Assembly: GCA_945877805.1 (NCBI GenBank)
Contig: CAMCSM010000001.1
Coordinates: forward strand, 10,221 to 74,220
Reading direction: 5' to 3'
DNA from: Methylacidiphilum caldifontis
GTDB lineage: Bacteria; Verrucomicrobiota; Verrucomicrobiia; Methylacidiphilales; CAMAQI01
Length of the DNA: 64,000 bases
Position 1 is the stretch's first letter; each line of letters starts with the position of its first letter. The translations under genes and the position numbers were made by a program. Positions 16,754 through 42,138 of this stretch are shown here, piece after piece. The notes beneath the pieces were generated by a model that saw nothing but the letters and a program-made list of their open reading frames with translations, was not told the origin of the DNA and did no database searches.

Positions 16754-16810
16754 TCAAATTAAAACCGCCTTATCCGATTAATCTTAGAGTAGGCCAGACG
16801 AAGTGATGAG

Positions 16811-20365: not shown

Positions 20366-20413
20366 TTTGAATTTATTGAATATAATCTAACTCCAAAAAT
20401 GTTCAAGCATCAA

Positions 20414-20431
20414 AATACAAGGGATTGTAAT
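20414..20431. promoter_or_regulatory. candidate operator TACAA-GGGA-TTGTA (site 2)
   Basis: aatacaagggattgtaat lies in the 113-bp divergent region between the 1184-aa gene and the pseudopilin operon. Confidence 0.5.
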
Positions 20432-20478
20432 ATTCATATTGATTCTTTTACAGAAAGCCTTATATTCTAAATCACACT

Positions 20479-21836: not shown

Positions 21837-21854
21837 CAATAGGAAAGACCTGTC

Positions 21855-22607: not shown

Positions 22608-22671
22608 ATCCTCACGAATCTGCCTAGAATATATATTCAATGAAACCATTTTCTACTCTACTCAAATCGCT

Positions 22672-22698
22672 TTGAATTCCGATTTATGAATTTTAAAA
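22672..22698. repeat. 27-nt dispersed repeat (partner of 534..560)
   Basis: ttgaattccgatttatgaattttaaaa is an exact inverted copy of 534-560. Confidence 0.8.
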
Positions 22699-22716
22699 CG
22701 GGAAAAAACCGAAATC

Positions 22717-25700: not shown

Positions 25701-26880
25701 CTAAATCGACGCTCCCTTGATAAACGAGGTTTCCTTTTCCGGAGATCTCCACATTCGAGCCCTTCGCCTCCATCGCTCCATAATACTCCGTCACTCCATC
25801 CGACCAAATCACCAGATTCTTCTCCTCGCTTTTCTCTCCATTGCCATTATTCGCAAAGAGCTTTGCCTCAGAGCTGATCTTCACCTGCTGCGCATTTTCA
25901 ATGCGGCTATCCTTCCCTTGAAATCCCCCCCCGATATTCAGCGTTCCGGCCTTCTCCCCACCACTGACATCGATCGTTCCCGCAACTCCGATTTGATTCC
26001 CCTCAATCACGACCTTTCCCCCCTTTTGATCCCCTGTAGCCGTGATCGTTCCCGTGTTCCTGACCTTTCCCTTTGGAGCCTTGAGATAAACCTCTCCGCC
26101 AATTCGTTCCACTTGGGTCGCTTGGATAAAACCCCCATTATTAATCGCTAAACTGGAAAGAGACCCTGCTGCTTTCAGCTCTGTTTGAATCGCCGAGATA
26201 TAACCTTGCTGCTCAATCGCGGTTCCCGAGGGAATGATTCCCGCTTTAACAAAGATTCGCTCAGCACCCACAGGTTTTAATAAAATCTCACTCCCTGAGG
26301 CTAGCCCGACACTTCCCTTCTCAGCGCGAATCTCTCCGTAATTCTCGATCTGGCGTGCGATTAAAAAAACATCGCCTCCTGAGGCGGTGATCTTGCCTAA
26401 GTTTGTGATCTTGGCACTCGAATCACCTGCAAAATTCAAATCTCCCCCCGTGAGAAAATTTTCATTCGTAAGATCAAGGGTACTGGCAATAAAGCTATTG
26501 CATTGGATATTCGCTCCGGCTCCCAATAATACCCCATTAGGATTTATTAGGTAAACATTTCCATTCCCTTGCAGCGTCCCTAAAATTGAACTCAGATTTC
26601 CCCCCGTCACCCGATTTAGGACTGAACTTGAGGCCGAGGGCATCACAAAACGGGTCGTCTCATCAGAGGCGATCGAAAAATCCCGCCAGTTGATAATCAA
26701 TTTATCGGAACTTTGATTAATCAGCGTCGTTTTTAAAATATCGGTGATTGTTGCTGAACCGGCAGCGACCGAGCCGTCGGTCGGATTCGAATACAAAAAA
26801 CTTCCCCGCATGAAAAAGAAGAGAAGCAGCAAGAATAAACCGGCTTTTTTTTTGGGGGGGGTGAGGAAGAATTCTTTCAT
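22717..26880 (-). CDS. TpsA-type exoprotein (filamentous haemagglutinin N-terminal domain, beta-helical repeats, MBG-like domain)
   Basis: 1387 aa. The TPS domain includes NPTDGSVAAGSATI...INWRDFSI...VLNRVTGG...LQGNGNVYLINPNGVLLGAGA. There are about a dozen repeats of roughly 30 aa of the form GTGAIxLxGTGGxxxxxNxGI, and a C-terminal block NYGEANPNFTYS...LNYRFQFVNGTL. Confidence 0.85.
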   Translation of the reverse strand: MKEFFLTPPKKKAGLFLLLLFFFMRGSFLYSNPTDGSVAAGSATITDILKTTLINQSSDKLIINWRDFSIASDETTRFVMPSASSSVLNRVTGGNLSSILGTLQGNGNVYLINPNGVLLGAGANIQCNSFIASTLDLTNENFLTGGDLNFAGDSSAKITNLGKITASGGDVFLIARQIENYGEIRAEKGSVGLASGSEILLKPVGAERIFVKAGIIPSGTAIEQQGYISAIQTELKAAGSLSSLAINNGGFIQATQVERIGGEVYLKAPKGKVRNTGTITATGDQKGGKVVIEGNQIGVAGTIDVSGGEKAGTLNIGGGFQGKDSRIENAQQVKISSEAKLFANNGNGEKSEEKNLVIWSDGVTEYYGAMEAKGSNVEISGKGNLVYQGSVDLGGNGSLLLDPQNLQISNANPGAYTNRTLASDLDQFTDNVAENSYITSTDLLSLLSTGNVTLQANTDITFVNNVDASGATYLNRSLTTNAGRSITFNSNIALTLNGGSYIATINDVGAQAGQRTAGDALFTMSDGSSITTNGGAISVTAGAYGGTTVGSILIGGGTTTATMSTGAGNITLTGVAPSTTNLYGVRLNKGTVQSSNGTINITGTGAAGTTAAYGVELRASSQVISTGTGAISITGTGGAGTTSNYGINMIGSSLIQSSGTGAISLRGTGGNGSSTDNVGFKIGSAGTIITSVTGNILIEGTGNGTGGSAIGINFNPSVQITSTGSAKITLNGTAGSAGTTFNNFGIYFNGGGSASSLISSVNGDITLNGTGTTNTSATFQNPGIWMSNEGIFSTGTASITINGTGGRGTSTNYGIYLLSASKIQSSGTGAITLNGTGGNATSSNNLGIFLESANTLVTSATGAIALNGTGGGATTSNHGIRLYNGAEITSTAGAKITLTGAGSTTGTNDNYGVFIDGNGGATTFISTTTGAVTIDGTGGGSTTNNYGFNLYNGGMVSSTGAGTIAITGRSAGTAPGLQVVTGANVIGGASATGDITLIANTATAANDSISLANLSIQTTGKVNLQPVNNSTTIGVNTGATGDFNLSSTDLATITAGNSGIVIGKTTGTGAVDLRATTWTDGVTVLNTGSGASGITVNGIQTASANKNLVLATGAFSNAVGAGALAVSGTGKWLVYVPDAANGTATDITVNGATPLATLNGLSSKYLYNGTYDTLAPTSITQTGNRFVFATAATLTFTANDAQKNYGEANPNFTYSDPSGLLGTDTQANAFQGTLGTFSAANSVTSPIVLSNGTGASDLNYRFQFVNGTLKTIFNPSSSPAFQKLQSKSGGSTSESTLSKTLPEPIFVNTGNLSASPPLVLNSSLDSGSLDQYQYRMSQDYDLKTKTYEINTTDLKNPQEVGNLTDPRKQESEANQILKRWYQRLLGV
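23970..25115 (-). repeat. intragenic tandem repeats of roughly 30 codons in tpsA (coordinates approximate)
   Basis: Repeated peptide pattern S/T-GTGAI-x-L/I-x-GTGG-x5-N-x-GI across about residues 590-970. This also explains the antisense shadow ORFs here. Confidence 0.6.
26845..26861 (-). repeat. C8A9 homopolymeric tract in codons 7-12 of tpsA
   Basis: The plus strand reads T9 (26845-26853) then G8 (26854-26861). On the coding strand this is ACC CCC CCC AAA AAA AAA (TPPKKK). Confidence 0.9.
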
Positions 26881-26957: not shown

Positions 26958-28796
26958 ATGTATGGTTTTTCAATGGAATTAAAACTCCCATTCACGCAAA
27001 TTCAAAAGCCTGTTATTTATTTATATAAATTACTTGCTACCCCCTGCATTTTCTCTCGAAACCCTCTGGTTTTCGCCGTTTTATTAATTTTTAACCATTT
27101 TTTAATCGCACAAGACCTTTCACGAGTCGCACCAAAGATCCCTGCAGTTCAAGAGCAGGGAGAGATCAAGGACTCGAAGAATCCAAAGGACAGTACCTCA
27201 ATTCAAACCCCCAAGGCTCAAGTATTAATCGAACAGTTTAAGGGATTAGTCCTCTGGAAAAGCTCTTTAGAAATGCAATGGGCAGGGGTTGAGGCAGTTC
27301 AAGGGCTAAAGAGCGAACTGACGTTGAACTATCGAAAGGATCTGGACATACAGTTGGAGCCATTTTGGAACAAGCCGTTGACCGATGAGGGAGTCGTAAA
27401 ATTAGTTCAAGTTCTTGAGGGCTACTTCTTAACGAAAGAATCTCAATGGGTTCTGGCTCAGGTAGAGGAACAGAAGATTAAAAACGGCGTTCTTCAAATC
27501 GTGATTGTCCCAGGAAAAGTAGGACAGGTTAGAATTACTGGAAATCGATGGTTTAAAACCGAAAAACTTGAGGAACAGTTTGAACTCAAACCGGGAGAGC
27601 CACTCAATCAGAAGGAGATGACTCAGACATTAGAAAATTTTAATCAAAACCCTTTTCGTCAAGGAGATCTTTATATGAAGGCGAGCGATATCAAAGGGTG
27701 CAGTGATGTAGATTTAAAAATACAGGATCGCTTCCCCGCCCGTTTTTATTCTGGATACGAGAATAATGGAAATAATTTAACAGGAAATGACCGATGGTTT
27801 GCCGGATTTAATTGGGGAGATGCCTTTTGGCAAGGGCATTTGATGAGTTATCAATTCACGACCGATGGCTGGTTTGATCGCTTTAAATCCCATACGGGCA
27901 GTTACTCGATTTTCATGCCGTGGGGAGGACAACGGTTTGATCTCGTCGGTGGATATTCAGAGGCCCAGGGATCCGTTTCTGATTTCAATATTCAGGGAAA
28001 AAGCTGGCTCGTCGGAGGCCGCTATCGAATTCCTCTTCCGAAATTTAATGAAGTTCGGCAAGAAATCAGTTTCGGATATGAATTTAAGCAGAGTAACAAC
28101 AATTTGGAATTTGGTGGAGCCAATGTCTTTAACCATTTCAATGATGTCAGTCAATTTGTTGCCGAATACCAAGGAAGTCTTGCCGATCCCTGGGGCTCCA
28201 CTCGTTGGAGCGGTAAAGTCTATGGAAGTCCCGGAGGGATGACGGAGAATAATCTTAATTCCGTTTATCGTGAATCGCGAGCGAACGCCAAGGCCGATTA
28301 TCTTTATGCCCAGGTGGAGCTTGAGCGGAGATTTACCCTGCCTTGGGGAGTCAGTTCACGGCATCAGGCTCAAATTCAGTGGGCGAGCGGTAATCTCCTC
28401 GGCAGCGAACAGATCGGAGCAGGCGGTCGAGAGAGCGTTCGCGGTTATTCCGAACGAGAGGCCAATGGCGATGAGGGATTATTGATGCAAAACGAGCTCT
28501 GGAGCCCTACTGGGAGTCTGGGGGCACTCCTCAAAGATTTTGGAGTTCCTGAAGCAGGGCACTACCAAGATAAGCTTCAAGGACTCCTCTTCTGGGATTA
28601 CGGAGTTGTTCGCAATCGATTCCTCTTACGAGGGGAAGACCGCGAAAAAATCCTCTCCTCCGTCGGTCTCGGAGCCCGTTATTCCATTAACACCTACATG
28701 AGTTTTCGCGGTGATTATGGAGTTCAACTCACCGATTCAGGACAAAATAACCCTGACAGCTATTTTGTTCATTTGAGCATGACGCTCAGTTATTAA
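26958..28796 (+). CDS. ShlB/FhaC/HecB-family TpsB outer-membrane transporter
   Basis: 612 aa with a POTRA-like region (VLQIVIVPGKVGQVRITGNRWF) and a C-terminal beta-barrel ending in an aromatic residue (...HLSMTLSY). Divergent from tpsA. The start is uncertain. Confidence 0.8.
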   Translation: MYGFSMELKLPFTQIQKPVIYLYKLLATPCIFSRNPLVFAVLLIFNHFLIAQDLSRVAPKIPAVQEQGEIKDSKNPKDSTSIQTPKAQVLIEQFKGLVLWKSSLEMQWAGVEAVQGLKSELTLNYRKDLDIQLEPFWNKPLTDEGVVKLVQVLEGYFLTKESQWVLAQVEEQKIKNGVLQIVIVPGKVGQVRITGNRWFKTEKLEEQFELKPGEPLNQKEMTQTLENFNQNPFRQGDLYMKASDIKGCSDVDLKIQDRFPARFYSGYENNGNNLTGNDRWFAGFNWGDAFWQGHLMSYQFTTDGWFDRFKSHTGSYSIFMPWGGQRFDLVGGYSEAQGSVSDFNIQGKSWLVGGRYRIPLPKFNEVRQEISFGYEFKQSNNNLEFGGANVFNHFNDVSQFVAEYQGSLADPWGSTRWSGKVYGSPGGMTENNLNSVYRESRANAKADYLYAQVELERRFTLPWGVSSRHQAQIQWASGNLLGSEQIGAGGRESVRGYSEREANGDEGLLMQNELWSPTGSLGALLKDFGVPEAGHYQDKLQGLLFWDYGVVRNRFLLRGEDREKILSSVGLGARYSINTYMSFRGDYGVQLTDSGQNNPDSYFVHLSMTLSY

Positions 28797-28948: not shown

Positions 28949-29012
28949 TCTTGTCCGCCATAGCCAGTGCGAAGGAGGATTACCCTGCGGTTAAAGTTGT
29001 ATTTTCTTTTCT

Positions 29013-29046
29013 CTTAAGTTGACGCCTATGCGATCTGCTTGACGGA
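29013..29046. repeat. dispersed intergenic repeat family, cttaagttgacgcc core copy
   Basis: cttaagttgacgcctatgcgatctgcttgacgga. Related copies lie at 34584-34605 (inverted), 61892-61923 (inverted), 62173-62204, and partially at 50533-50547. Confidence 0.7.
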
Positions 29047-29051: not shown

Positions 29052-30392
29052 TTAGCTGCGAGGCAGATCGTTCCGAGACTTTGAGAGGCACTCCGGATTC
29101 GGTGTAACGGGATGCGTTCCCTTCCATTCCGTAACCATTTTTTTGAGCCTCTCTGAAAGGGCACGGTTTTTATTGGCAACATTGCTTGTTTCATTTGGGT
29201 CCACAACAATGTCAAAGAGCTCGTCCGGTTCTTGATTATTTCCTGTCACATACTTCCATTGCCCATCACGAACCGCATATTGACCTCCGCCATACCAAAA
29301 GAGCGGCTTCGTTCTCGGCTTTGGATTTCCAAATAAAACATCGAGGCGACTCTCTCCATCTCCAAAATAATCCGAAGGAATCTGAATGCCAACGGCTTTA
29401 CAAACCGTGGGGAGATAATCCACCGCGGCCATCACACTCTCTTGATCAACCTTTCCCTCTGGGATATGGCCGGGCCACCGGGCAATAAAGGGCTGATGAA
29501 TTCCCCCTTCATACACTTGCCCTTTCCAACCCCGACGTCCTCCTGTGGAGCCTGCATTAAATCGCTCTCCATTTTTATCTTCTGGATCGTTTTTTGCCTT
29601 TGCCGGTCCGTTGTCACTTGAGAAAATAATGAGGGTATTGCCTTCAATTCTGCCTTCTTTAAGCGCCTCTAAAATTTGACCGATTCCACGATCAAGATCT
29701 GCGACTGAAGCTGCATATTTCTGTATCATCGGGTCTAATCCACTCGCTGCGTTCAGGGATTCCTTTGAAGGGAGATAGGGAACATGCGTTTCATGTAAGG
29801 TCACGGTTAGATAAAAAGGTCGATGCTTGTTATCTCGGATAAATTTCGTCGCCGTTGGATAAACTTGGTGGTTAAAGTCTTTATCTAAATCTGCCTCCCA
29901 TGGTCCACGCATCAGATGCCATTCATCAAATCCAAAGTCAGAGGGTTTAGGCGCATCCAGCATTCGTCCTTTAAATTCCTCTACCAAATGCCATTTACCA
30001 CAAATTCCTGTGTAATACCCCGCTTCCTTGAATATTCGAGCAACGGATGGAGCTTTGGGGTCAAGCCAATCGGACTGATTTCCCTTAATATTCGTCTCTA
30101 GGTAAAACGGACTATGGATTCCGTAGCGCATCGGAAATTGTCCTGTCAAGAAACCGGCTCGACTGGGCGAACAAATGGAAGCGGCTACATAAAACTGGTG
30201 AATATCAATTCCCTGACTGGCAAGTTTATCCAAATGGGGGGTTTTAAAATAGGGGTGACCATGAGAACTTAAATCTCCCCAGCCCATATCATCGGCCAAA
30301 ATAAAAATGACATTCGGCTTTTGAAATGAGGCTTCTACGACGCTTAAGAAACCCCAAAGGAGGAAAATAATTAAAAAATGTATCCTCATCAT
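29052..30392 (-). CDS. sulfatase (formylglycine-dependent, arylsulfatase A family)
   Basis: 446 aa with a signal peptide, NVIFILADDMGWGDL and the CSPSR formylglycine motif. Confidence 0.9.
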   Translation of the reverse strand: MMRIHFLIIFLLWGFLSVVEASFQKPNVIFILADDMGWGDLSSHGHPYFKTPHLDKLASQGIDIHQFYVAASICSPSRAGFLTGQFPMRYGIHSPFYLETNIKGNQSDWLDPKAPSVARIFKEAGYYTGICGKWHLVEEFKGRMLDAPKPSDFGFDEWHLMRGPWEADLDKDFNHQVYPTATKFIRDNKHRPFYLTVTLHETHVPYLPSKESLNAASGLDPMIQKYAASVADLDRGIGQILEALKEGRIEGNTLIIFSSDNGPAKAKNDPEDKNGERFNAGSTGGRRGWKGQVYEGGIHQPFIARWPGHIPEGKVDQESVMAAVDYLPTVCKAVGIQIPSDYFGDGESRLDVLFGNPKPRTKPLFWYGGGQYAVRDGQWKYVTGNNQEPDELFDIVVDPNETSNVANKNRALSERLKKMVTEWKGTHPVTPNPECLSKSRNDLPRS

Positions 30393-30393
30393 C

Positions 30394-33300
30394 TTATCTC
30401 TCCGTCACGACTCGTATCGCACCAACACAGAACCGTTCGTCCGCCGAGTTCACCCTCAAGACGGCCTTCAGATAAAAACGGCTTTTTCCTTGAACGTGAG
30501 GTGTTAGATCCAGAAACTGCCAAGGTAACCTCATGACCTTGCTATCAATACTCTGGGGATAGGCATTTTGCCAACTATTGTCAAAAACGCCTGCCCGTCT
30601 CCAACTCTTCTGATCCTCGCTCACCCAAAACTCAACCGAACTCGAATCTTCAAAGGCTCTTGCGGTAAACTCGACGACCGTTGTTTTTAACGGTTGTTCA
30701 GATAAGACCTGATAACAAATGAATCCAGGATTAAAATACTCCGTCGGCCTCAAAAGATTCATCACAATTTTATGGAGATAATTCGGCTCTGGTTTGTGCG
30801 GCTTGACGATTACTCCTTGATAAGTGGAAGCTGATTTTTTCCAATCATCTACTTGACTCATCTCGACATAGTTTTGATCCAAAAGAACCTTCCACGGTTG
30901 ATGAATCCGGATGATGCGCGGCTTTCCTCCTTTTTCCGCGTAAGGAGAGTAATCGATTTCAATCTCCTGACCCGGTTTAAAAGCCTCGATGAACATTTTG
31001 GACTCATAGTTTCGATAGGGTCCGTGCATCGCCACCGTGTCGATCACCGCATTGACATCAAACTCAAATCGCTTTCCGTTTTCGAGTTCGATGGCTCCAT
31101 TGCTGTAAGGGGGCATGACGGAAACGGGATCAACGGCTTTTATTTTTCCTTTTGCATAGCCGTAGAGGGCTTCGATCGAGACCACCTCGCCCTGATCATT
31201 TAAATCAAGCATCACCCGATCCTCTTTTTGAGGCCACTCGGAAGATTCACCTGGCTTTATTTCTCCCTCCGCTTGACGGGTCACTTTGACGGATGCGGAT
31301 AGGAAAAGAGTCATATTCTCTTCAAAGTTCATCCACTCCAAATTCTGTGTATCGACCCGAATTTTCTTGCGATCCCCCTCTAAAAATCGGGCGCTGAATT
31401 GACGCGGGAGCACCGGCTTCACGGGCCCCGTTTTTTCCGCATGGAATGGAACAACCGCTTTTCCTTCTTTGATATCGATTTCGCTTTGATTCGGATCCTT
31501 GGAGAAGAGGGCTTGAATTCTCTCCATGAATCCCCGTGATCCCTGAGATTTTGGCTCAATTTGGAGAGCGTATCGATTTTGCCCGGTCTCCCTCACGGTC
31601 GCCGTTTTCGCAACGTCGCCCACTTCCACGATCAGCTCTCCCTTTTGAAATTCCTTCTCCGGAGTCAATTCCAGTTCGAATTCATTTTTATTCAATTTCA
31701 GGATTGTCGCCAGAATCACTTCATTCGGATCCGCAAGTCTGACCTCGATCGGATATTTTCCAAGCTTCCCATGACTTCGAATCGCATAGCGGGCGGGAAG
31801 CACCTGCGAAAGTTCGCCATTTAAAAGATTTTGAACCGAGCGATAACGGGCTTCGGCATAAAGTTCCCCGGCCTTGCTCAAAATGTCTCGATCTCCCCCT
31901 TGCTCCTCGTATCTCTGAAGCAATCTCTTTGCGACCGAGCGATCCTGCACCCAAAGTTCCAAGGTTCGGTTCTCTTTCATCGTCCAAGGGCTACCCTGAA
32001 GATGACCGCTTTTCTTTTCCCATTCGCCTCCGATCTGGCAACTCAACAAAAACGTCGCATCCGTTGCCCCCTTGGCATGGAGAGCTAATTTTACGAAACA
32101 TTTCTTCTTTCCAACCATCGACTTTCCGAGACTACATTTATTCTTACTGGTCATGAAATGAGTCCAGTGATCGGGACAAGGCAACTCCTTTTCCGTCAAT
32201 TGTGAAACTTTTTTCATCGTTTCCGCCGTATCCCCTACCCAGACTTCGATTCGATTTTCTTTTCCGGGGGAGATACGACCATCGAGTTCCATCACCAGCT
32301 CAGAAGAAAAAGCCTCTCCGCCATTTTCTACGACATAAATCACCTCCCCGGGCTGGGAAAGATCGGTCACCGACAAACGGGAGCAGGATTGGGAATCGGC
32401 ATTATCCAAAACACGGGATTGCACTTCGATATTGCGATGAGAAATCACTTCATCGGGGGAACCTAAACTTCCCCTTAAGCGGTATGGCGCTTCAAAAAAA
32501 TAAGGGGAATAATGCTCAGGAGCAAACATCGGCATCGACTCAAATCCATCGGCTTTTCGAATAAAGGGGGTATCTGTCTCTAATTCGTTGTAAAGCGTCA
32601 CATATTGAAAACCTGTTGCATAAAGATTACGCAGGGGGGTGTAATCCTCTTTCAGGATTGTTGCCTCCAAATTGACGTGAGCTAGCTTTCCATTAGCCCT
32701 GAGGTAGTCGTAGTAAGTATACCCCGTCCAAAAAAGCTCCCCGCTACTCCAAAGTCCCTTCACCATCCCCGATTGACCTCCGAACCATCGGGAGTCCTTC
32801 ATCGGCCCCTCTGTCTTAAAGTAAGTCTGGGCATAGAGGTTTTCGGTCATTGGATCGGTGGGCAACCGCACCTCCCCGCGATCGACAATCACATAATTAC
32901 GGCCCACCGCCTTCACTGTTTCTTCTGCATAACCTTTCCAAAGGCAAACTCCGTCCTGGAAAACCCAAGCCTGCTCCTCGGAACTTAATCCATCCGAATA
33001 GTTGAGTATCACTCCCTCTTTTTTTGCCTCTGCCATCGTCGCCGCAGTGACCTCCCCAAGCGGAGGACCCATCTCCCGGACAAAGATCGCCTCACCCCTC
33101 ATTCCCCGTGCCTGATCAAATGCGATTTTTTCCGGAACATCGCGCATGACCTCAAAAAAACGCTTCCGCATTTGTTCATTCATGTAAGGATCACGAAACG
33201 TCGACCAAATGGAACTGCTCCACATATTCGGCCATGAGGGACGATAAGCTTTCCTCTGCGAGTCGTAGGAGACCTGACTGTAGCGGCTATCACAGAAGTA

Positions 33301-34110
33301 GCCCCCGAGACCATCCGGACCCTTGGGCGCTCCGCCCCAAGTCGCCCCGTTGATGACAATTTGGACCGGAGCCCCCGCTTGGTCCGCTTGGTCGATTGAC
33401 TTTAAAATATCAGCCCTTGTCTTTTCGAACGGTTTATTTTGATAGTTCGTCAAAAGCATCGTTCCCAAGGGAGAAAAACAGCTCATCGGTTTTTCATCCG
33501 GGGAGGGTTTTTTAAATTTCCCATTCAATCCCATTGGACGATAAACCGACTCAACGGCATCCACAGTCTTGAAAAAATCGGCATAAAGCCAGACTTGCCC
33601 GATTGAAAAAGGGGCACTTCCCCGGCTTTGAAGGGAGACCTCCATGCTTTTCCTTTTTTTTGCCACATCGGCTGGAACCGAGACAAAATAATGATTCGGT
33701 CCCGCTCCTAATTCCTGATAGGTTCTAAAATAGAGCTCCACCCCGTTGACAAAAAGGGAGTAGCCGTGAGCTTGAGGACGACGATCATGAATCTCCTGAA
33801 TTTCGAGAATAAACGACCCTTCATATCCCCCCTTGTCCATTTGAAATTCAAGCTTTGAACCTGTTCCCTTCAGGGTTCGTACAGGGGATTCCTCCTTCAA
33901 TCCTCCCATAACCGTCTTCAACAACTCCATCCCCGCATTTCCTTGTAACTGAACCCGGTGAGCTCGCTCACTCTGTTCATTTCCACAAAGGAGGTGATCG
34001 GCAAAAAGAGCCTCCCCGAAAACCCGTCGATCAAAAAGGAATGCGATTAAAAAAATAAGGAGTGGGATCAAAAGGTTTTTTTTCATATTTTTTATAAAGT
34101 CAAGATGCAT
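30394..34110 (-). CDS. giant secreted uncharacterised protein, paralog A (putative glycan-active enzyme)
   Basis: 1238 aa with a signal peptide. It is colinear with the 1093-aa ORF at 36556..39837 (shared blocks EIHxRR, VNGxExYFRxYxExGAGPNHYFV, PxGPDGLGGYFxD, LPARxAIRxxGKLGxYPI) and carries an extra C-terminal discoidin-like domain. Ends 1 nt before the sulfatase gene. Confidence 0.7.
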   Translation of the reverse strand: MHLDFIKNMKKNLLIPLLIFLIAFLFDRRVFGEALFADHLLCGNEQSERAHRVQLQGNAGMELLKTVMGGLKEESPVRTLKGTGSKLEFQMDKGGYEGSFILEIQEIHDRRPQAHGYSLFVNGVELYFRTYQELGAGPNHYFVSVPADVAKKRKSMEVSLQSRGSAPFSIGQVWLYADFFKTVDAVESVYRPMGLNGKFKKPSPDEKPMSCFSPLGTMLLTNYQNKPFEKTRADILKSIDQADQAGAPVQIVINGATWGGAPKGPDGLGGYFCDSRYSQVSYDSQRKAYRPSWPNMWSSSIWSTFRDPYMNEQMRKRFFEVMRDVPEKIAFDQARGMRGEAIFVREMGPPLGEVTAATMAEAKKEGVILNYSDGLSSEEQAWVFQDGVCLWKGYAEETVKAVGRNYVIVDRGEVRLPTDPMTENLYAQTYFKTEGPMKDSRWFGGQSGMVKGLWSSGELFWTGYTYYDYLRANGKLAHVNLEATILKEDYTPLRNLYATGFQYVTLYNELETDTPFIRKADGFESMPMFAPEHYSPYFFEAPYRLRGSLGSPDEVISHRNIEVQSRVLDNADSQSCSRLSVTDLSQPGEVIYVVENGGEAFSSELVMELDGRISPGKENRIEVWVGDTAETMKKVSQLTEKELPCPDHWTHFMTSKNKCSLGKSMVGKKKCFVKLALHAKGATDATFLLSCQIGGEWEKKSGHLQGSPWTMKENRTLELWVQDRSVAKRLLQRYEEQGGDRDILSKAGELYAEARYRSVQNLLNGELSQVLPARYAIRSHGKLGKYPIEVRLADPNEVILATILKLNKNEFELELTPEKEFQKGELIVEVGDVAKTATVRETGQNRYALQIEPKSQGSRGFMERIQALFSKDPNQSEIDIKEGKAVVPFHAEKTGPVKPVLPRQFSARFLEGDRKKIRVDTQNLEWMNFEENMTLFLSASVKVTRQAEGEIKPGESSEWPQKEDRVMLDLNDQGEVVSIEALYGYAKGKIKAVDPVSVMPPYSNGAIELENGKRFEFDVNAVIDTVAMHGPYRNYESKMFIEAFKPGQEIEIDYSPYAEKGGKPRIIRIHQPWKVLLDQNYVEMSQVDDWKKSASTYQGVIVKPHKPEPNYLHKIVMNLLRPTEYFNPGFICYQVLSEQPLKTTVVEFTARAFEDSSSVEFWVSEDQKSWRRAGVFDNSWQNAYPQSIDSKVMRLPWQFLDLTPHVQGKSRFYLKAVLRVNSADERFCVGAIRVVTER

Positions 34111-34174
34111 TGCTCATTTGAAATCCATATCGACGCAACGTTTTCGATGATTGTCACTGTAGATTAAAACCTAC

Positions 34175-34192
34175 AATACAATCGATTGTATT
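34175..34192. promoter_or_regulatory. candidate operator, perfect 18-bp palindrome aatacaatcgattgtatt (site 3)
   Basis: TACAA-TCGA-TTGTA with a central CG, about 65 nt upstream of the paralog A start codon. Confidence 0.6.
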
Positions 34193-34583
34193 TCAAGTGA
34201 AATGTGAATTCAGCCATCTTTTCCGAAAACCTTCGATCATTATTCGAGAAAATCGTGATTCTCGGATAAATAACAGACACAATTAGTTTAAATAATGAAC
34301 CTAATATCTCTTAGTGAAGTAAAGTCCAAGAGATTATGAAAAAATCATTTTTTGTATCGATAGGGAGGATGGGGAGGATAAATTCAAAAACAATTTTCTT
34401 TGGTCTTTATCCTGAAAATCCTCTCTATCGATGCAAAATTTTCCTGCCATGATAACTCATCCATTATGCAAGAATCAGAGGGTTACTCTCCAACTCCATG
34501 ATGACTCCGCCGAGTCCCCTCGGCTGCGGGTTGCGTCCCAGCCCCGATCCTTTTTCGGGGCTGCAATCTCTTCTCCCGCTGCT

Positions 34584-34605
34584 GCGCATAGGCGTCAACT
34601 TAAGG
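34584..34605. repeat. dispersed repeat copy (inverted cttaagttgacgcc core), preceded by a hairpin cluster at 34500-34585
   Basis: gcgcataggcgtcaacttaagg. Upstream of it are ctccgccgagtcccctcgg... and the 9-bp-stem hairpin cagccccga/tcggggctg. Confidence 0.65.
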
Positions 34606-34669
34606 GAAGAGAAAAGACTTCGTTTCAGCTCCTAAGCTTTCGTCTCAGGGAGCTGAACAGTAACTAATA

Positions 34670-35347
34670 TTATATGATTTCTTTTTTACGAGTGCTCGAT
34701 TTAAAGACCACAAACAACAGAGCACTTAGCCCTAAAAATAGATAGGTCGAAGGCTCAGGAACCGGGCTCACACTAAAGGCATCTAATTCAATCACAGTAG
34801 CCCCAAAAGAATCAGCACTATTCAGATTTAATCTAAAATATTGGGCGGTTGTATAAGCATTGAAAGTGTCAGTTATAGTAATTTGAAAATTTCCATATGT
34901 CCCGGAGTAATCAGGATTAATTGTCGAGGTGGAGACGATGTTGGAGTTTGTAAAACTTCCAGGACTAGAGCTCGCAAATAGAGTATATCTTGAGATCGAA
35001 CGGTATGAAGTTGCGGGATCAGCAGTACCTTCTTCACGAACAAAAAGTCTAATTTGACTAAAAGTAATTGGTGCGGAGGTATTAAATTCAATAAAATGAA
35101 CAGGAACGGTTGATACACCCCCATTAAAATACGTGATTCCGCTCCCAAAGTTTCCTGTGCCCCCAAAAATACCACTAGGGGTCGTATCGTCAGCAGTTGG
35201 TGTCGCCAATCTTGAACTAGAGGCTGTGACCGTGGCATTTTGAAATAAATCGGTCGTACTTTGTACTCCGCCTGCTGTAATAATTTGAGCGTTACTCATT
35301 GAAATGAATGCCAACCCAGAGAGGGCGATGATTAATATTTTTTTCAT
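34670..35347 (-). CDS. PEP-CTERM sorting-domain protein
   Basis: 225 aa with a signal peptide and a Thr/Ser-rich body. The C-terminus VPEPSTYLFLGLSALLFVVFKSSTRKK shows the PEP motif, a TM helix and a basic tail. Confidence 0.85.
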   Translation of the reverse strand: MKKILIIALSGLAFISMSNAQIITAGGVQSTTDLFQNATVTASSSRLATPTADDTTPSGIFGGTGNFGSGITYFNGGVSTVPVHFIEFNTSAPITFSQIRLFVREEGTADPATSYRSISRYTLFASSSPGSFTNSNIVSTSTINPDYSGTYGNFQITITDTFNAYTTAQYFRLNLNSADSFGATVIELDAFSVSPVPEPSTYLFLGLSALLFVVFKSSTRKKEII

Positions 35348-35654
35348 AAATTAATTTCCTTTTTTATTGAAGTTGAAATTAAACTAACATTAGTTATCAG
35401 TTCCGTCTTCCCCTCCAATCCTGTAAAATGATCTTCCATTGAGTGGAACGACGACAACCTCATCAGCATTGATCATGAGGGAGATTTAAGTTTCCATCTC
35501 ATTTACAGTGGAATAAAAAAATATCTGAGGAAAGCAGGTGACATAAGTCGGGATTCGAAGACTTTCTTGCATTAGGAATCGGTTTGCCTCTTAAAACATA
35601 TTACCAAAATGGTGAAATATAAAAATCCTCAAACATCAATTCATTTTAATGGAA

Positions 35655-36536
35655 TTAATCGTCACTCTTTTTTATGAAAGAAGCGATGCGACTTCTTCGG
35701 ACTTTTCCTGGTGCCATTCCAAAATGATATTTAAAGAGTCGATAAAAATGGGCGACGCTTTTAAAACGAAGTTCTTCAATAATATCAAGGATCGGCTTCT
35801 CCGTCTGTTCCATCATTATTTTCGCGTACAAAATCCGTTTCTTATTGATATAATTCGTCGGTGTCGTGGTCATATACGATTTAAAAATTTGAGAAAATCG
35901 AGAGGGGCTATATCCGGAGATTTTTTGTATTTCCGTGACCTCTTTGAGAAAGAACTCCGGGCTTTCGAGTTTCTCTAAAAGTAAGACCAGCCAGTCCGGA
36001 ATCGCATTTTTTCGTGATCCCATAATAATCGGCATATAAGGGGGAAAATAGGTCTCTATTTTTTCTTCCGGAACGATAATCGTCAGAAGCTCACTGAGGA
36101 TCCGATAAAGTTGTAGTGAGGTATTCGAGATCTCTCTGGCCTGAAGCAATAGATTGGTCAACTGTGTCGCCTGTGCTGCTGAAAACGATAACGCCCTATT
36201 TCGAACCCCCTTGCTTTTTAAGTAGTCCGTCGCCTTCGGCGTAATCCTTGAGAACACAGCATAATATTTTTTTGGAAAAGAAAAATTGAGAATAATTCCA
36301 GATCGCCCTTTAGGGATTGAAAAGCGATGAACATCCTTCGGACAGATCCACCATCCCTCCCCTACTTGCATTTCAACGGTTTTCCCATTGATATGATGAA
36401 GTACCACTCCAGCCTCAATGATAAAAAATTCGTAAAAGTCATGGTCATGCAAAAAGACTTCACTCGGATAGTTCAGCTCCAAACGATGAGACTGAAAGTG
36501 TTGATTGCAGACCTCGTTCCAAAGAATTGTTTTCAT
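35655..36536 (-). CDS. AraC family transcriptional regulator (cupin plus HTH)
   Basis: 293 aa. The N-terminal cupin-like part includes FLHDHDFYEFF. The C-terminal HTH_18 blocks are ISGYSPSRFSQIFK...YINKKRILYAKIMM...VAHFYRLFKYHFGMAPG. Confidence 0.85.
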   Translation of the reverse strand: MKTILWNEVCNQHFQSHRLELNYPSEVFLHDHDFYEFFIIEAGVVLHHINGKTVEMQVGEGWWICPKDVHRFSIPKGRSGIILNFSFPKKYYAVFSRITPKATDYLKSKGVRNRALSFSAAQATQLTNLLLQAREISNTSLQLYRILSELLTIIVPEEKIETYFPPYMPIIMGSRKNAIPDWLVLLLEKLESPEFFLKEVTEIQKISGYSPSRFSQIFKSYMTTTPTNYINKKRILYAKIMMEQTEKPILDIIEELRFKSVAHFYRLFKYHFGMAPGKVRRSRIASFIKKSDD

Positions 36537-36555
36537 TGAAGGAGGGGCTCGGTTC

Positions 36556-39500
36556 TTACTTTGACTGAACCTTTTTTTGACTCAAACTGACCATTCGTGG
36601 AAGCGTTCCGTTCACTCCATAAGGACTGTAAACAATATCAACTTCGGTTCCTGGAGCCAGTGCTGCCATTAACTGCTTTTCTGAATTAATCCGGATAAAT
36701 TCATTCAAGGGAGGAACGTCAATCTTGGTCCGTCCCCACATGCAGGAAAACTCATAGCGATTTCCGCTCTCCAACTCTATGATTCCGTTATGCGTTTTGC
36801 CTTTGACCGCCGCAGGAGTGAAGGATTTAATCTTTCCTCTCTCTTTTCCAGAGATCGAAACGATCGCTTCAGCAATTCCCGAGTCATTCACCAAAAGGTC
36901 CACTTGGTCCCATTTCTCTGGCAACGAACTCGCAATGACGGAGCCCCCTTTCTGACTTCGACTCAATTTAGTCTCTTTATTGATCGGAACAAAAATCGGG
37001 TTTTCCAACCAAAGCCGTGGGTCTTGCGTCTCGATCGTAATTCCTGAGGGATTTCGATCGATACAGAGACCGGAAAACTGTGAAGGAAGATTAACCCTCT
37101 CTTTTTCTTGTGGGCTTCCTTTAATTTCAAAATCTAATTTCCCCTCTTTTGCCACGATCGCCGTTTTTCCCGTCGACGGGAGGAGTTGATATCGATTCAT
37201 CGGAGAGCTTGTCAGCAAATATGTTTGCCCAGACTTCAATCCTTCCACATGCAACTTGCAGAGACTTTCCTTTTCTGTTTTCAGCAAAAACTCAACACCT
37301 TCGCTTCCGACCTTGAGCAAATCAATGACCGCAACCTCCTTTTCATCAGGAAGTTGAATGCTGATCGGATAGAAACCGAGTTTTCCGAACCCGCGAATAG
37401 CAAATCGTGCCGGCAGTTTTTGGGAGATTTCCCCAGAAAGATGTCGATGGGCACTGCGATATTTCCCTTGAGATATTAAGCTGTTTGCTTCTTGGAATGC
37501 AAGATCTGATCCTGATAAGTCGAGGTACCTTCTCTGCAACCTTTCCAGTACTGCGCGCTCCTGAATCCAAAGACTCATGATTCGTTTTTGATAAACGTTA
37601 GTCGATATCTCGCCAAGGGGGCCACTTGTTTTTCCCCAAGGAATCGTCACACGTAGTTTTTCAATCCCAAATTTTTCTTCGTTTTGCGCATTGAGTACCA
37701 ACTTGAGATAAACCTCATTTCCCTCTTTAAAATCATTACCTAAAGAGACTGTTGTCCATGTTTTCCATGGATGCCCATTCTCCCGGAAAAGATCTTTTTT
37801 ACTGATTTTTTTAACCATTTTTAAACTCTCTGGAGTCAAGCCCACCATAACATCAATCGAACTCTTGTTCGGCATATTAACGGTTAAGGTCAGATCGAGA
37901 GAGGAATTAAAAGGGCGATCTTGTTTTAAATGATAAACGACGGATGAGGAAATATTTCTATCTATCGGCCGCATCAATTCTGGATTATAGTTATAGGAAA
38001 CAGAACGCTCGACGTTTTCCTGTGAAAATAGAACTTCCTTAGAACCTAAATCGGAATCACGCCTGAACTGTCGATCAAACAAAAACGGATCCGCATGAAC
38101 GACGGGCCTTGCTACTTTTTGATCCAACGTCTCTCCTTGCGGAAGAAAAAGATCCCCCTCCCCCCATCGCGCATTAATCAAAGTGACACTTTGAAATCCC
38201 CGCTCGTAAAGAATTTGGAGATAGTCCCAGTTGGGCAAACAAGCCCGCTCCAAGTTCGAACAGGCGACTTTCCCTTGGGCCGCCATATATTCGTAATAAG
38301 GCTCAGGAAGCCCTGGGAGCAACTCTCCTGTGGTCCATGAGTTTTCACTCATTCCGTGTTGATAGCCCGCCCACGCATTATCAAAAAAGGGATCAACGGG
38401 ATCCGCCCACACATGAAAATAATTTTGATCGAAAGCTTGCTCTTGGGGAAGTTGGATTGATCCCTTATCGATAATAATTGGATTGCGTCCGACAGATTTA
38501 AAAAATCTCTCTGCGGTCCTCTTCGGCACTTGCACAATATTGCGATAGAGCCAGATTTTTTCCTCCTCATTATATCCATCTTCCGGGGTCAATTTTAATC
38601 CATTCTTCTCGGCGGCTTGCATCGTAAAATCATTGCAATCCTTTTCGACACTGATCCCCCAGTCATGATCGATCAAGGGAATAGGAAACGATTTTCCGTT
38701 CGCTTTATATAAATCACGACGGTCGACAAAATAGCGAACCGCCTGATCGAGGCGATGCTTCAAGTAGAGCATCAATTGGGGATTGTTAAAAGAAGGCCAT
38801 GTCGTTGATCCCGGGGTATTAAGCCACGTGGTACGATAAGATTGAGTCTGAGCGTCAAATGCAATCTTACTATATTTTACATCGGAAAAATAACCTCCTA
38901 ATCCATCAGGACCGTTGGGATGAGTCCCCCACTCCCCTGCAGAGAAGTTGATTTGCGATTCAAGAGGAAGATTATATTGAGAAAGTCTTTCAAAATATTG
39001 ATCTATTTTCTTTTCTATCTCAATTTCAGAGTGAATCGCGTATGGTATATCAAGCATGAATCCCTGAGAAAAAACGGTTTTGGAAAATCGATCCTCCATC
39101 TCTTTCCAATAGTCAATATCCTGCCTTATTTCCGGCTTCTTAATTCTCTCCGCCCAAGAGATTGTTTTATTATTCTTTTGTTTGTCATCTTGATTTCGAA
39201 GAATAAAAGCCTCTTCAATAACTGACATTTTTTTAGTGACCCCTTCTTTTTGAGCGAGAGTGAAGAAATCTTCATAAAGCCAGACCCTCGCCAAGCTAAA
39301 TGATTCCTCTCCCTCATTTCGAAAAGTGACTTTGATGGAGCTGGAAGTGAGATTCTCTTTGGGAATTGGAACAAAGTAATGATTGGGACCCGCTCCCATC
39401 TCTTCATAACTACGGAAATAAACCTCCTGACCGTTCACTAAAACGGTATACCCAAAAACTTGTTTTCGTCGTTGATGAATCTCCTCCACCTCCATCATCA

Positions 39501-39837
39501 GCCAATTCGAATTCTTATCCTGCGCAGCCGTTTCCACCCGAAATGGCAGTTTGATTTGAAACTCAATTGCGGATCCCTTCCCCGCGATCGTATGGGCTTC
39601 ATAAGTTTTTTGAATCGACCCCATCTCCGTGGCGATCTTTTCGAGTCGCACATTTCCCTTGGGTATAATCAAAAGATTAGGATCAGTGGAGGAAACCCCC
39701 AATGAAATCTCTTTAAATCCTACCCCTTGGCTTGATGCCACCGCCATGAGTCCGATGAACAAGAAAATGGCCTTATGTAAAACCAAAGCCTTAGAACGTG
39801 AAGTAATGCCGTTTTTTATAAAATTTAAAAAGATCAT
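36556..39837 (-). CDS. giant secreted uncharacterised protein, paralog B
   Basis: 1093 aa with a signal or TM N-terminus, colinear with paralog A (see 30394..34110). It is followed after 19 nt by the AraC gene. Confidence 0.7.
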   Translation of the reverse strand: MIFLNFIKNGITSRSKALVLHKAIFLFIGLMAVASSQGVGFKEISLGVSSTDPNLLIIPKGNVRLEKIATEMGSIQKTYEAHTIAGKGSAIEFQIKLPFRVETAAQDKNSNWLMMEVEEIHQRRKQVFGYTVLVNGQEVYFRSYEEMGAGPNHYFVPIPKENLTSSSIKVTFRNEGEESFSLARVWLYEDFFTLAQKEGVTKKMSVIEEAFILRNQDDKQKNNKTISWAERIKKPEIRQDIDYWKEMEDRFSKTVFSQGFMLDIPYAIHSEIEIEKKIDQYFERLSQYNLPLESQINFSAGEWGTHPNGPDGLGGYFSDVKYSKIAFDAQTQSYRTTWLNTPGSTTWPSFNNPQLMLYLKHRLDQAVRYFVDRRDLYKANGKSFPIPLIDHDWGISVEKDCNDFTMQAAEKNGLKLTPEDGYNEEEKIWLYRNIVQVPKRTAERFFKSVGRNPIIIDKGSIQLPQEQAFDQNYFHVWADPVDPFFDNAWAGYQHGMSENSWTTGELLPGLPEPYYEYMAAQGKVACSNLERACLPNWDYLQILYERGFQSVTLINARWGEGDLFLPQGETLDQKVARPVVHADPFLFDRQFRRDSDLGSKEVLFSQENVERSVSYNYNPELMRPIDRNISSSVVYHLKQDRPFNSSLDLTLTVNMPNKSSIDVMVGLTPESLKMVKKISKKDLFRENGHPWKTWTTVSLGNDFKEGNEVYLKLVLNAQNEEKFGIEKLRVTIPWGKTSGPLGEISTNVYQKRIMSLWIQERAVLERLQRRYLDLSGSDLAFQEANSLISQGKYRSAHRHLSGEISQKLPARFAIRGFGKLGFYPISIQLPDEKEVAVIDLLKVGSEGVEFLLKTEKESLCKLHVEGLKSGQTYLLTSSPMNRYQLLPSTGKTAIVAKEGKLDFEIKGSPQEKERVNLPSQFSGLCIDRNPSGITIETQDPRLWLENPIFVPINKETKLSRSQKGGSVIASSLPEKWDQVDLLVNDSGIAEAIVSISGKERGKIKSFTPAAVKGKTHNGIIELESGNRYEFSCMWGRTKIDVPPLNEFIRINSEKQLMAALAPGTEVDIVYSPYGVNGTLPRMVSLSQKKVQSK

Positions 39838-39987: not shown

Positions 39988-42138
39988 CTAACGAGCCATA
40001 AGTCGATGCTGAATCGAAATTCGATCTCCTCCCTTCTGTTCCTCCAACAGAACGATCTCATTGACTCCCTCTTTCAACCATGAACGAGGAAGGACATAAT
40101 ACTGTTGGGAATACCGAACGTTTTCCTGGATATAAAGACCGCAATCTTTCGGATGCCAAACCTCATCCACACCATATCCATTCGCCTCCAGAAGCCAGTA
40201 ACGACCGATCATCCTTCCATTGACAAAGGCCATTCCTTTCCCCCAGAGCTCCAGATCCAGTCGCCAATCGAGCTCCTGCCTTAGATCCTCCGTGGAAAGC
40301 GTTATCGTGAATCGATGCCACGTCAATTTCTCCGAAGATGATTTTCCGGATCTCCATGGAATATTTTTTTGGTCAATATTTTCAAAGTTCAAAAACGGCC
40401 TGATTTTCCATTTTCGAAGCGGATTCTCGTTCCAGAACACTTCATCCCAAATCCCTTTTCGTTCGCAATGCATCGGACTGGAGATCGACCAATCCCCTTT
40501 CACCATTCCGATCGCCGTTGCGAGAATATCGATTTGATGATTACCCGGTTTGGCTTCAAAGACAAATTCGTGTAAATACCCATCCTCGAGCGGTTTCTCT
40601 GCTTGAACCGCCCAACTGTCCTCAAACGCCCCTGATTCTTTTCGGATCGCCTGTCTCAATATCGATCCGCGCCACTCCTTAAGGGGCGCCGAAGTTGAAC
40701 CGATTTTTTCACCATCACAATAGAGATAAAGGAAATCGGCTCCATAAGGGATCCGAATTCTCTGAATCCCTTCTTTTTCAACGAAAATTTCACAGCTATA
40801 CCAACAATAATCACTCCGGTCGTGAGTAAACTTTAATTGGTCCTCAGGCGTATCCACCTCGATCGGCGAGTCCTGGCGATCTTGTGGCATGGGCTCTGGA
40901 GCAGTTTCTATCGATTCGCAAATCTTACAAACGGTCCAGGGATTTTCCTGAATGTGAGTCGAAGCCCTTTCATAAAGGGCCAGAGAGTCGAAAATCACTC
41001 GTCCATTCGCGGAAAGAATCACTTCTGGAAGTCGTTGTCCATCCAGCCCCATCTTCTCTCCTTGGGATCGAAACGTAATTTGGACAACCTCTTCTTTCAA
41101 GGTAAATTGAACCTGCTCGACCTCTCCACTCTGGGTACAGGTACGCTCTCCCTCTATCAGCACTTGCTGTAAATCCTTGAGCACACGATGGAACTCGCAC
41201 AAATACAAGCCCACAGGGGTCACTCTCCCATACTCGTCCAAGCCCCAATCAAACCCATATGCGGTGCATTGTTGAAACATGGCGGTACGTCCAAAATTCG
41301 TTCCCCCGAACCACATGTAATAATTAAAGCCGCTTCCTCCCTGCGCGATAAACCGAAGAATCGCATAGGCGACATGTCGAACGTCCCTGTGATGGGGTGC
41401 AAAACCCCACGTATTATACCATCCCGGCCAAAGCTCAGTCCAAATCAAAGGGGCATCAGGCTGCTTCGCTCGCAATTTTTCAACAATCTCTTGTTTAATG
41501 TTAAAGCCATTCGCACATTCGATGGCCCCGGGAGTTCCCCCTTCGCACGTCATCAATGGGACATCGACTCCGCTCTTTTGAACGAGATCAACGATCCACG
41601 CATTGTATTTGACCCCCTCCTCGCCATACCACTTACCGACGACACTATATTCATTCTCGACCTGAACCATCGTCACCGCGCCTCCCCTCGTCGCCAAATG
41701 GGGGATAAAAACTTCAAAAAGTTTTTTAAAATAAATCTCAACCCTTTCCATAAAAGCGGGGTTAAAGGTTCTAAAAACAATCCCCGGTTCATCGCGAAGC
41801 CAGCAGGGAAATCCTCCGTAGTTCCATTCTCCACAGCTATAGGGTCCTATTCTTAAAAAGACCTTTAAGCCCTTCTTCCGACAGAGAGTCAAAAATCGTC
41901 CCAGATCACGATTTTCCGAAAAATTAAAAACCCCTTTTTCCTCTTCATGAAAATTCCAAAAAATATAGGTCGCAATCGTATTGATCCCCATCTTGACACA
42001 ATTCTCCAGCGCGCGATCCCAATCCTCTGCATCCAAGCGGGAATAATGAAACTCCCCACTGATCAGAATTTCACGCTGCCCATTAAAAATGAATGATTTC
42101 TGGTCGAATTCGATACTCTTCATTAATTCGCTTTTCAT
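39988..42138 (-). CDS. GH35 beta-galactosidase
   Basis: 716 aa with the blocks GEFHYSR, NTIATYIFWNFHE, GPYSCGEWNYGGFPCWL and VQVENEY. Confidence 0.9.
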   Translation of the reverse strand: MKSELMKSIEFDQKSFIFNGQREILISGEFHYSRLDAEDWDRALENCVKMGINTIATYIFWNFHEEEKGVFNFSENRDLGRFLTLCRKKGLKVFLRIGPYSCGEWNYGGFPCWLRDEPGIVFRTFNPAFMERVEIYFKKLFEVFIPHLATRGGAVTMVQVENEYSVVGKWYGEEGVKYNAWIVDLVQKSGVDVPLMTCEGGTPGAIECANGFNIKQEIVEKLRAKQPDAPLIWTELWPGWYNTWGFAPHHRDVRHVAYAILRFIAQGGSGFNYYMWFGGTNFGRTAMFQQCTAYGFDWGLDEYGRVTPVGLYLCEFHRVLKDLQQVLIEGERTCTQSGEVEQVQFTLKEEVVQITFRSQGEKMGLDGQRLPEVILSANGRVIFDSLALYERASTHIQENPWTVCKICESIETAPEPMPQDRQDSPIEVDTPEDQLKFTHDRSDYCWYSCEIFVEKEGIQRIRIPYGADFLYLYCDGEKIGSTSAPLKEWRGSILRQAIRKESGAFEDSWAVQAEKPLEDGYLHEFVFEAKPGNHQIDILATAIGMVKGDWSISSPMHCERKGIWDEVFWNENPLRKWKIRPFLNFENIDQKNIPWRSGKSSSEKLTWHRFTITLSTEDLRQELDWRLDLELWGKGMAFVNGRMIGRYWLLEANGYGVDEVWHPKDCGLYIQENVRYSQQYYVLPRSWLKEGVNEIVLLEEQKGGDRISIQHRLMAR

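Follow-up and report, generated by a model that had tools for sequence, protein, structure and literature searches.

What might two very large proteins do that are encoded among sulfatase and glycosidase genes and resemble no annotated family? This question is raised by a 64,000-nucleotide stretch of contig CAMCSM010000001.1 (assembly GCA_945877805.1, Methylacidiphilum caldifontis; positions 10,221 to 74,220), hereafter the window, which carries open reading frame (ORF) A (30394..34110, minus strand; 1238 amino acids [aa] as called) and ORF B (36556..39837, minus strand; 1093 aa). An initial annotation of the window, made from the nucleotide sequence, had described A and B as giant colinear paralogs and as candidate novel glycan-active enzymes, a core idea that is supported here by the predicted fold, residue conservation, modular fusions and gene context. 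Judged by sequence comparison, A and B are anciently diverged members of a small and unannotated family of exported multidomain proteins of ~1100 aa. On balance we think it probable that both are exported, likely retaining glycoside hydrolases (GHs) that act together with co-transcribed sulfatases and esterases.

A and B belong to an unannotated protein family

Both ORFs are present as described, and A and B align by BLASTP over ~1134 columns with 30% identity (E = 6e-136), colinearly along the entire length of B, a similarity that by this measure is far above chance; A extends beyond B by ~150 additional C-terminal residues. All three motif pairs quoted in the initial annotation are found in the two proteins, namely the block that begins EIHDRR (from residue 106 of A and 119 of B), GPDGLGG (A264/B309) and LPAR[YF]AIR (A771/B808). 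The secretion signals reported for both proteins are likewise there, as hydrophobic, signal-peptide-like segments read from the N-terminal sequences, and a hydrophobic N-terminal segment is present in 81 of 105 homologues. A database protein that is 99% identical to A (P0001; 1230 aa) begins with MKKNLL, and the true start of A is therefore probably M9 (position 34086), with a signal peptide (MKKNLLIPLLIFLIAFLFDRRVFG) predicted from the sequence at 34015..34086 on the minus strand. Overall G+C content is 0.480 for A and 0.433 for B. The single-line counts from which different ages or origins had been suggested (32/60 and 25/60) are exact; the inference itself is rejected, as both genes lie inside the 0.37–0.50 spread of the window genes and their composition is uninformative as to origin.

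The description of A and B as proteins of unknown family holds at the cut-offs used, with no match for either to Pfam or NCBIfam (E≤1) or to PDB sequences (E≤10). Searches of the PDB with phmmer and with a family profile returned just insignificant matches, to GH20 and to a “putative chitobiase.” A search with A of 5.8 billion clustered proteins retrieved 108 relatives, all “hypothetical” and none with Pfam domains, and searches seeded with Firmicute and Armatimonadota members retrieved 65 and 61 relatives, again unannotated. Across these relatives the only source names are “hypothetical,” “S-layer homology domain-containing” and “Ig domain-containing”; precomputed Pfam assignments place no domain on the family region in 234 database matches, and Pfam and NCBIfam give none on the barrel (see below) of 15 distant members. 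A profile search of 1.84 billion cluster representatives (50% identity) yields only 263 matches at E≤1e-3, and the family is therefore small.

The family divides into A-type proteins of about 1180–1300 aa, which are 35–50% identical to A (the closest up to 51%), and B-type proteins of about 1040–1100 aa, which are ~30% identical to A and up to 39% identical to B. A and B thus fall into separate subfamilies, each sharing more identity with orthologues from other Planctomycetota-Verrucomicrobiota-Chlamydiota (PVC) phyla (up to 51% for A and up to 39% for B) than the two share between them (30%). Verrucomicrobiota, Planctomycetota and Kiritimatiellia harbour both types; since both span these lineages and the identity among orthologues exceeds that between A and B, the split is old. 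Its hosts are freshwater PVC bacteria known from metagenome-assembled genomes (MAGs), each of which can carry as many as ~10 family genes, cultured strains of Cohnella and Paenibacillus (598K included), Clostridia of gut and rumen, and Armatimonadota, with one record each from Bacteroidota, Acidobacteria and Actinobacteria. In Firmicutes, family proteins also contain SLH, Big_2, F5/8-type-C and dockerin modules, the dockerin match, in one gut-metagenome member, being weak; the SLH-bearing Paenibacillus proteins reach 1820–2115 aa. Such fusions are a hallmark of extracellular carbohydrate-active enzymes. A tblastn search of plasmids, in which a link to the Lentimonas fucoidan megaplasmid was sought, gave no match.

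As to the host, the window is matched at 100% identity by contig CAMAQI010000099.1 (L001), whose MAG bears the label “Methylacidiphilum sp. Phi.” The “Methylacidiphilum” label is odd for a locus rich in glycan-degradation genes; the bin may have been mislabelled, or its lineage may be just a distant relative.

A (β/α)8-barrel within a multidomain architecture

An AlphaFold2 model of A, calculated for residues 39–1238 from a 70-sequence alignment (model numbering plus 38 gives ORF numbering), has a predicted local distance difference test score (pLDDT) of 92 and a predicted template modelling score (pTM) of 0.90; a barrel-only model has a pLDDT of 85. All domains are encoded on the minus strand. 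An N-terminal β-sandwich (33577..33996; ORF residues 39–178, model 1–140) is followed by a (β/α)8-barrel region, delimited with the model and Foldseek (32461..33549; ORF ~188–550, model ~150–512), a post-barrel β-sandwich (32002..32454; ORF 553–703, model 515–665), a three-helix bundle (31810..31980; ORF 711–767, model 673–729) and a series of β-domains with the LPARYAIR motif (30877..31794; ORF 773–1078, model 735–1040). A further C-terminal β-sandwich (30397..30864; ORF 1083–1238, model 1045–1200), defined by the model, BLASTP and hhalign, is specific to the A-type; B has the layout of A minus this last domain.

The extra domain of A had been called discoidin-like. An additional β-sandwich is indeed there; its identity as an F5/8 type C domain does not stand, with no Pfam match of this kind (PF00754/PF22633) in A and an hhalign probability of 4% against the F5/8 domain of the window's GH95. 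Of 28 members scanned, one gives an F5/8 Pfam signal (E = 0.022). The homology of the extra domain is rather to the post-barrel sandwich of the family itself (hhalign 97%, E 1e-10), of which it is, on sequence grounds, an internal duplicate.

A Foldseek search of the PDB with the isolated barrel is led by GH26 YdhT, Cellvibrio japonicus GH35 (TM ~0.47–0.49, probability 0.99–1.0), GH5_18 and GH42, at E ~1e-3 and with a root-mean-square deviation (rmsd) above 6 Å. With the full-length model the search is led by the multidomain glycosidases GH66, GH101, GH96 and GH26+CBM35, and whole-chain TM scores are low. The confident model thus contains the (β/α)8 core that the initial annotation had suggested looking for, and the closest solved folds are those of glycoside hydrolases; in the libraries searched we found neither a match to a characterised family nor an assembly of non-catalytic folds only, the outcomes named there as speaking against a novel enzyme. 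Our proposal is that the barrel represents a clan GH-A-type glycoside hydrolase domain.

Conserved residues suggest a candidate catalytic pair

Conservation was counted in 339 members of the family, drawn from Firmicutes, PVC phyla and further lineages, and residues are given in A numbering. In the N-terminal sandwich, E106 (model E68) is found in 304/304 sequences and R129 (model R91) in 306/310, and H108, R110 and H140 are invariant or nearly so in close relatives and conserved at about 81–89% family-wide. The barrel region conserves W258 (303/316), D266 (model D228; 313/315), D274 (model D236; 311/317), Y277 (308/317), N480 (model N442; 309/309) and E482 (284/309), and position 353, a Glu in A, is E or D in 315 of 317 sequences. 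Two further carboxylates, E346 (model E308; codon 33073..33075, minus strand), at which E or D is present in 302/317, and E458 of the WSSGE motif (model E420; codon 32737..32739, minus strand), conserved in 307/311, lie 112 residues apart at the C-terminal tips of barrel strands, E458 directly after the model strand 415–419. Their equivalents in B are D392 (38662-38664) and E505 (38323-38325), both on the minus strand.

In clan GH-A the acid/base Glu ends strand 4, usually within N-E-P, and the nucleophile Glu ends strand 7, ~5.5 Å away; T-E-N-E-P is the classic β-4 motif of the clan. The Paenibacillus sp. 598K homologue has TENEP at the E346 strand, and most family members have S-G-E at the E458 site. 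Because these motifs and the strand-tip positions fit the clan GH-A pattern, we propose E346 as candidate general acid/base and E458 as candidate nucleophile. D410 of A (in VDRG) was considered as an Asp nucleophile in the manner of GH66 and GH101 and rejected, being conserved in only 159/293 sequences.

Sulfatases accompany the family across phyla

In the window, the TAA stop of A is followed after 1 nucleotide (nt) by the ATG of a type I (formylglycine) sulfatase (29052..30392, minus strand; PF00884, 2e-48) with a CSPSR motif and an N-terminal signal peptide, in agreement with the spacing reported initially. The neighbours reported for B are also confirmed: an AraC-family regulator (35655..36536, minus strand) lies 19 nt downstream, and a GH35 β-galactosidase (39988..42138, minus strand) lies upstream. 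The GH35 protein has no signal peptide and is therefore probably cytoplasmic.

How far these neighbours are shared was counted around 62 distinct family genes, each with at least 4 kb of flank. A sulfatase lies within 300 nt of 27/62 and within 10 kb of 38/62, and the tie to sulfatases is conserved across phyla; a SASA-type esterase lies within 300 nt of 9/62 and within 10 kb of 22/62, and another family paralog within 300 nt of 5/62 and within 10 kb of 41/62. GH35 is found near 0/62 at either distance. The adjacency to GH35 is therefore unique to the window, and the galactose-containing substrate of the initial proposal is not supported.

The arrangement A-sulfatase-sulfatase-B recurs, as does a conserved operon, LacI-SSF-A-sulfatase-GH52/GtaA_6_hairpin-paralog-SASA-sulfatase, which occupies positions 6917-23705 of locus L072 and has similar counterparts in L014, L022, L025, L031 and L033. 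Genes that likewise recur near family members encode AraC regulators, GDSL esterases, MFS_2 carriers, fucosidases of GH29 and GH95, RhaM, a GH78-like protein, GH38, GH42, GH43 and GH88/KduI/KduD, as well as a radical SAM protein resembling anaerobic sulfatase maturases, as in locus L071. Taken together, this context points to a sulfated and acetylated heteroglycan rich in deoxy-hexoses and uronates rather than specifically to a galactan. Such a substrate fits the niche of Verrucomicrobiota, which are known to specialise in algal glycans that are sulfated and rich in fucose and rhamnose (PMC8857213). The homologue of Cohnella sp. CGMCC 1.18574 (WP_378162834.1; 1765 aa; L054, 9860-15205) has no sulfatase nearby and lies in an operon with LacI, ABC sugar-transporter, GH78-like, two dehydrogenase, GH38 and DUF6786 genes; this locus suggests that the family is not confined to sulfated substrates.

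Two further proteins were observed in these loci. The GH52/GtaA_6_hairpin protein (~700 aa) is a fixed component of the LacI-SSF operon and could be another glycosidase of the same pathway, as yet uncharacterised. A fused FA_desaturase-Rieske-NAD_binding protein of ~750–790 aa is encoded beside AraC, in the vicinity of family genes, in L068 (2508-4796), L069 (2418-4796) and L073 (15580-17826).

Proposed function and its alternatives

From fold, conserved residues and context we infer hydrolase chemistry, the catalytic residues, a retaining mechanism, a substrate class and an order of action with the sulfatase, as follows. A and B would be exported via their signal peptides, and E346/E458 in A and D392/E505 in B would serve as general acid/base and nucleophile of a retaining mechanism. 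The substrate site would be shaped by the invariant GPDGLGGYFxDxxY loop together with residues of the N-terminal sandwich, its invariant Glu and Arg and its conserved His. The enzymes would break down a sulfated and probably acetylated heteroglycan, derived from algae or cyanobacteria, in concert with the co-transcribed periplasmic formylglycine sulfatase and, in related genomes, also with SASA-type esterases and further paralogs. MFS or SSF carriers would take up the products, whose degradation would be completed in the cytoplasm by exo-glycosidases such as GH35, with expression controlled by AraC or LacI regulators.

Several observations weigh against this proposal. By sequence and profile, the family has no tie to any glycosidase family in the libraries searched: a Pfam scan of 28 members at E≤10 gave nothing consistent, and the family profile aligns with the window's own GH35 at an hhalign probability of 0.3%. 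The structural matches of the barrel are weak (E ~1e-3, TM < 0.5, rmsd > 6 Å). The numbering of the barrel strands is ambiguous, and a count of β-α units assigns E346 to strand 3 and E458 to strand 6, where the clan pattern would have 4 and 7; the residue before the putative acid/base is mostly R, Q or T and not N; and B has an Asp (in H-D) in place of Glu at this position. Finally, PVC genomes are very rich in sulfatases, and part of the adjacency could be background.

Could the family be a glycosidase family already held in CAZy, outside the reach of Pfam, NCBIfam and the PDB, and hence not novel? We consider this unlikely, with a real if minor chance of being right; the foremost candidate would be GH111, the keratan-sulfate endo-β-N-acetylglucosaminidase (“keratanase II”) of Bacillus circulans KsT202. 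A TIM barrel is predicted for the catalytic domain of GH111, of which no structure has been solved (PMC8602953); the sulfated substrate of GH111 fits the sulfatase context. GH111 proteins of the gut Clostridia genus Limousia carry dockerins (PMC12997984), which recalls the weak dockerin match of one gut-metagenome member here, and by 2026 the GH families of CAZy were numbered up to at least GH195 (PMC13063451). The SLH-bearing Paenibacillus members, at 1820–2115 aa, are also in keeping with it. The founding GH111 enzyme is a ~200 kDa surface enzyme of a Bacillus/Paenibacillus-type organism. Against this identity, no keratan, keratanase or endo-β-N-acetylglucosaminidase names occur among the 108, 65 and 61 relatives, a weak argument given that only about a quarter of database proteins are named; no GH20, GH84 or GlcNAc-catabolism genes occur in the inspected contexts; the neighbouring D-E or D-D residues on which substrate-assisted catalysis by hexosaminidases relies have no conserved equivalent in the family; and the sole likeness to a hexosaminidase is the insignificant GH20 match (E 0.24).

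It is quite improbable, in our judgement, that the barrel performs some other glycan chemistry, as a polysaccharide lyase, a carbohydrate esterase or de-N-acetylase, a transglycosylase or a phosphorylase. TIM barrels do serve many chemistries, the PgaB C-terminal domain and a sugar epimerase are among the similarly weak structural matches, KduI, KduD and GH88, which process lyase products, are encoded in some related loci, and the invariant Arg and conserved His could bind uronate carboxylates. The structural neighbours of highest probability are, however, retaining glycosidases, and, as in glycosidases, strand tips are where the two best-conserved carboxylates of the barrel are located; moreover, a phosphorylase is unlikely among exported proteins, and separate esterases (SASA, GDSL) are encoded alongside. 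Least probable of all is a non-catalytic role in glycan binding or scaffolding at the surface or in the periplasm, with the barrel a degenerate enzyme fold: although ~700 of 1100 aa are β-sandwich and helical domains, B has Asp for Glu at the putative acid/base and no sequence tie to active enzymes is detectable, conservation of E458, N480, D266 and D274 is 98% or higher among phyla that share only ~25% identity, whereas degenerate folds usually lose their strand-tip carboxylates, and several copies are retained inside catabolic operons at positions expected of enzymes.

Returning to exported glycoside hydrolases as the preferred reading, a more far-reaching version is conceivable, which we offer tentatively and hold to be somewhat less likely true than false. 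A and B would then be founding members of a GH family that no classification yet includes, spread over freshwater PVC bacteria, Armatimonadota and Firmicutes, in which a GH-A-like barrel is fixed to an N-terminal sandwich that recognises anionic sugars, its Glu, Arg and His binding sulfated or uronate sugars, and A- and B-type enzymes would act sequentially with dedicated sulfatases and esterases on phytoplankton heteroglycans. If true, this would open up sulfated phytoplankton heteroglycans that have no presently known depolymerase. Much carbon resides, in a form that is hard to degrade, in the sulfated heteroglycans of algae and cyanobacteria; PVC bacteria are specialist consumers of this pool, and many of the backbone-cleaving enzymes are missing. 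A conserved, multi-copy, sulfatase-linked family invisible to Pfam, NCBIfam and the PDB is a concrete candidate for such a missing depolymerase, and a credible one for a new GH family. Confirmation of activity would add a new CAZy family, improve the annotation of lake and gut metagenomes and possibly provide tools for the analysis of sulfated glycans. Because homologues occur in cultured Cohnella and Paenibacillus, both biochemistry and genetics are feasible.

Other features of the window

The initial annotation had assigned A and B each a copy of a shared operator. The sole significant repeated element that we find is an intergenic one of ~34 nt with the core CTTAAGTTGACGCCTATGCG, located at 28999-29032 (plus), 34585-34618 (minus), 50532-50551 (minus) and 62174-62193 (plus), four copies compared with 0 expected by chance, with a −35-like TTGACG inside. 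The copy at 34585-34618 lies ~475 nt upstream of A and the one at 28999-29032 immediately 3′ of the sulfatase; these two form an inverted pair that brackets the sulfatase-A operon. Another copy is located ~67 nt upstream of an MFS_2 gene. Upstream of B the element is absent at up to 3 mismatches, and comparison of the sequences preceding A and B reveals neither a common 10-mer nor a gapless match of at least 13/16; a shared operator for the two genes is thus not upheld. The element could be a regulator site or a promoter module common to glycan-utilisation genes. A promoter and terminator scan gave nothing above shuffled expectation, and an Rfam scan of the window returned two tRNAs only.

Among the remaining genes, two ORFs without Pfam match, at 16811-20365 (minus; 1184 aa) and 10063-12132 (minus; 689 aa), flank GH95 fucosidase and SASA esterase genes; the former was considered as a third paralog and rejected, as it is unrelated to A by BLASTP. 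A two-partner secretion pair adjoins the sulfatase-A operon and consists of a TPS-domain/MBG exoprotein of 1387 aa (22717-26880, minus) and a ShlB/FhaC-type transporter (26958-28796, plus). Between A and AraC lies a gene for a 225-aa protein with a weak PEP-CTERM sorting motif (34670-35347, minus), which also precedes A on L001. The segment 42148-46597 (minus) encodes MauE/DoxX, DUF1573, an outer-membrane efflux protein and MacB/FtsX, with a G+C content of 0.37–0.39 compared with 0.43–0.50 for the glycan genes.

Comparison with known glycoside hydrolases

Among PDB sequences the family profile reaches only GH20, through the β-N-acetylhexosaminidase SpHex of Streptomyces plicatus (1hp4). Two colinear segments align, with GGYF matched to GGYY after an early barrel strand, at a nonsignificant E = 0.24, and the catalytic D-E pair of GH20 has no conserved counterpart in the family.

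GH66 (CITase, 3wno; dextranase, 5axg) and GH101 (endo-α-N-acetylgalactosaminidase; 2zxq, 5a57 and 3ecq) are the top full-length Foldseek matches, with E values of 2e-12 to 1e-9. Like the present family, they are large exported proteins that combine a β-sandwich, a barrel and several further β-sandwiches. In contrast, whole-chain TM scores are 0.1–0.2, the domain arrangements differ and neither family is among the top 50 matches of the barrel alone; furthermore, GH66 and GH101 use an Asp nucleophile, for which the candidate in the family is the poorly conserved D410. Keratanase II of GH111, compared here by description only, resembles the family in its size, its predicted TIM barrel (PMC8602953), its sulfated substrate and its dockerin-bearing relatives (PMC12997984). 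No family member carries this name, however, and the gene contexts are devoid of GlcNAc-processing genes and point to fucose, rhamnose, mannose and uronate.

Clan GH-A provides the best neighbours of the isolated barrel, namely Bgl35A of GH35 from Cellvibrio japonicus (4d1i/8pej), YdhT of GH26 from B. subtilis (3cbw), BlMan5B of GH5_18 (6mp2) and a GH42 enzyme (4uzs). The family differs from the clan in having no sequence or profile similarity to it, with structural matches that stay below a TM of 0.5 and above an rmsd of 6 Å, in the usual replacement of the Asn before the acid/base, in a 90-residue excursion that carries the invariant GPDGLGGYFxDxxY loop, and in its obligatory N-terminal sandwich with invariant Glu and Arg and its ~550 aa of conserved C-terminal domains. 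On the side of resemblance, the family has a pair of conserved strand-tip carboxylates ~112 residues apart, candidates for the acid/base and nucleophile of the clan, the first in T-E-N-E-P or, more usually, x-R-E and the second in S-G-E, and a Y-x-H motif on the strand between them.

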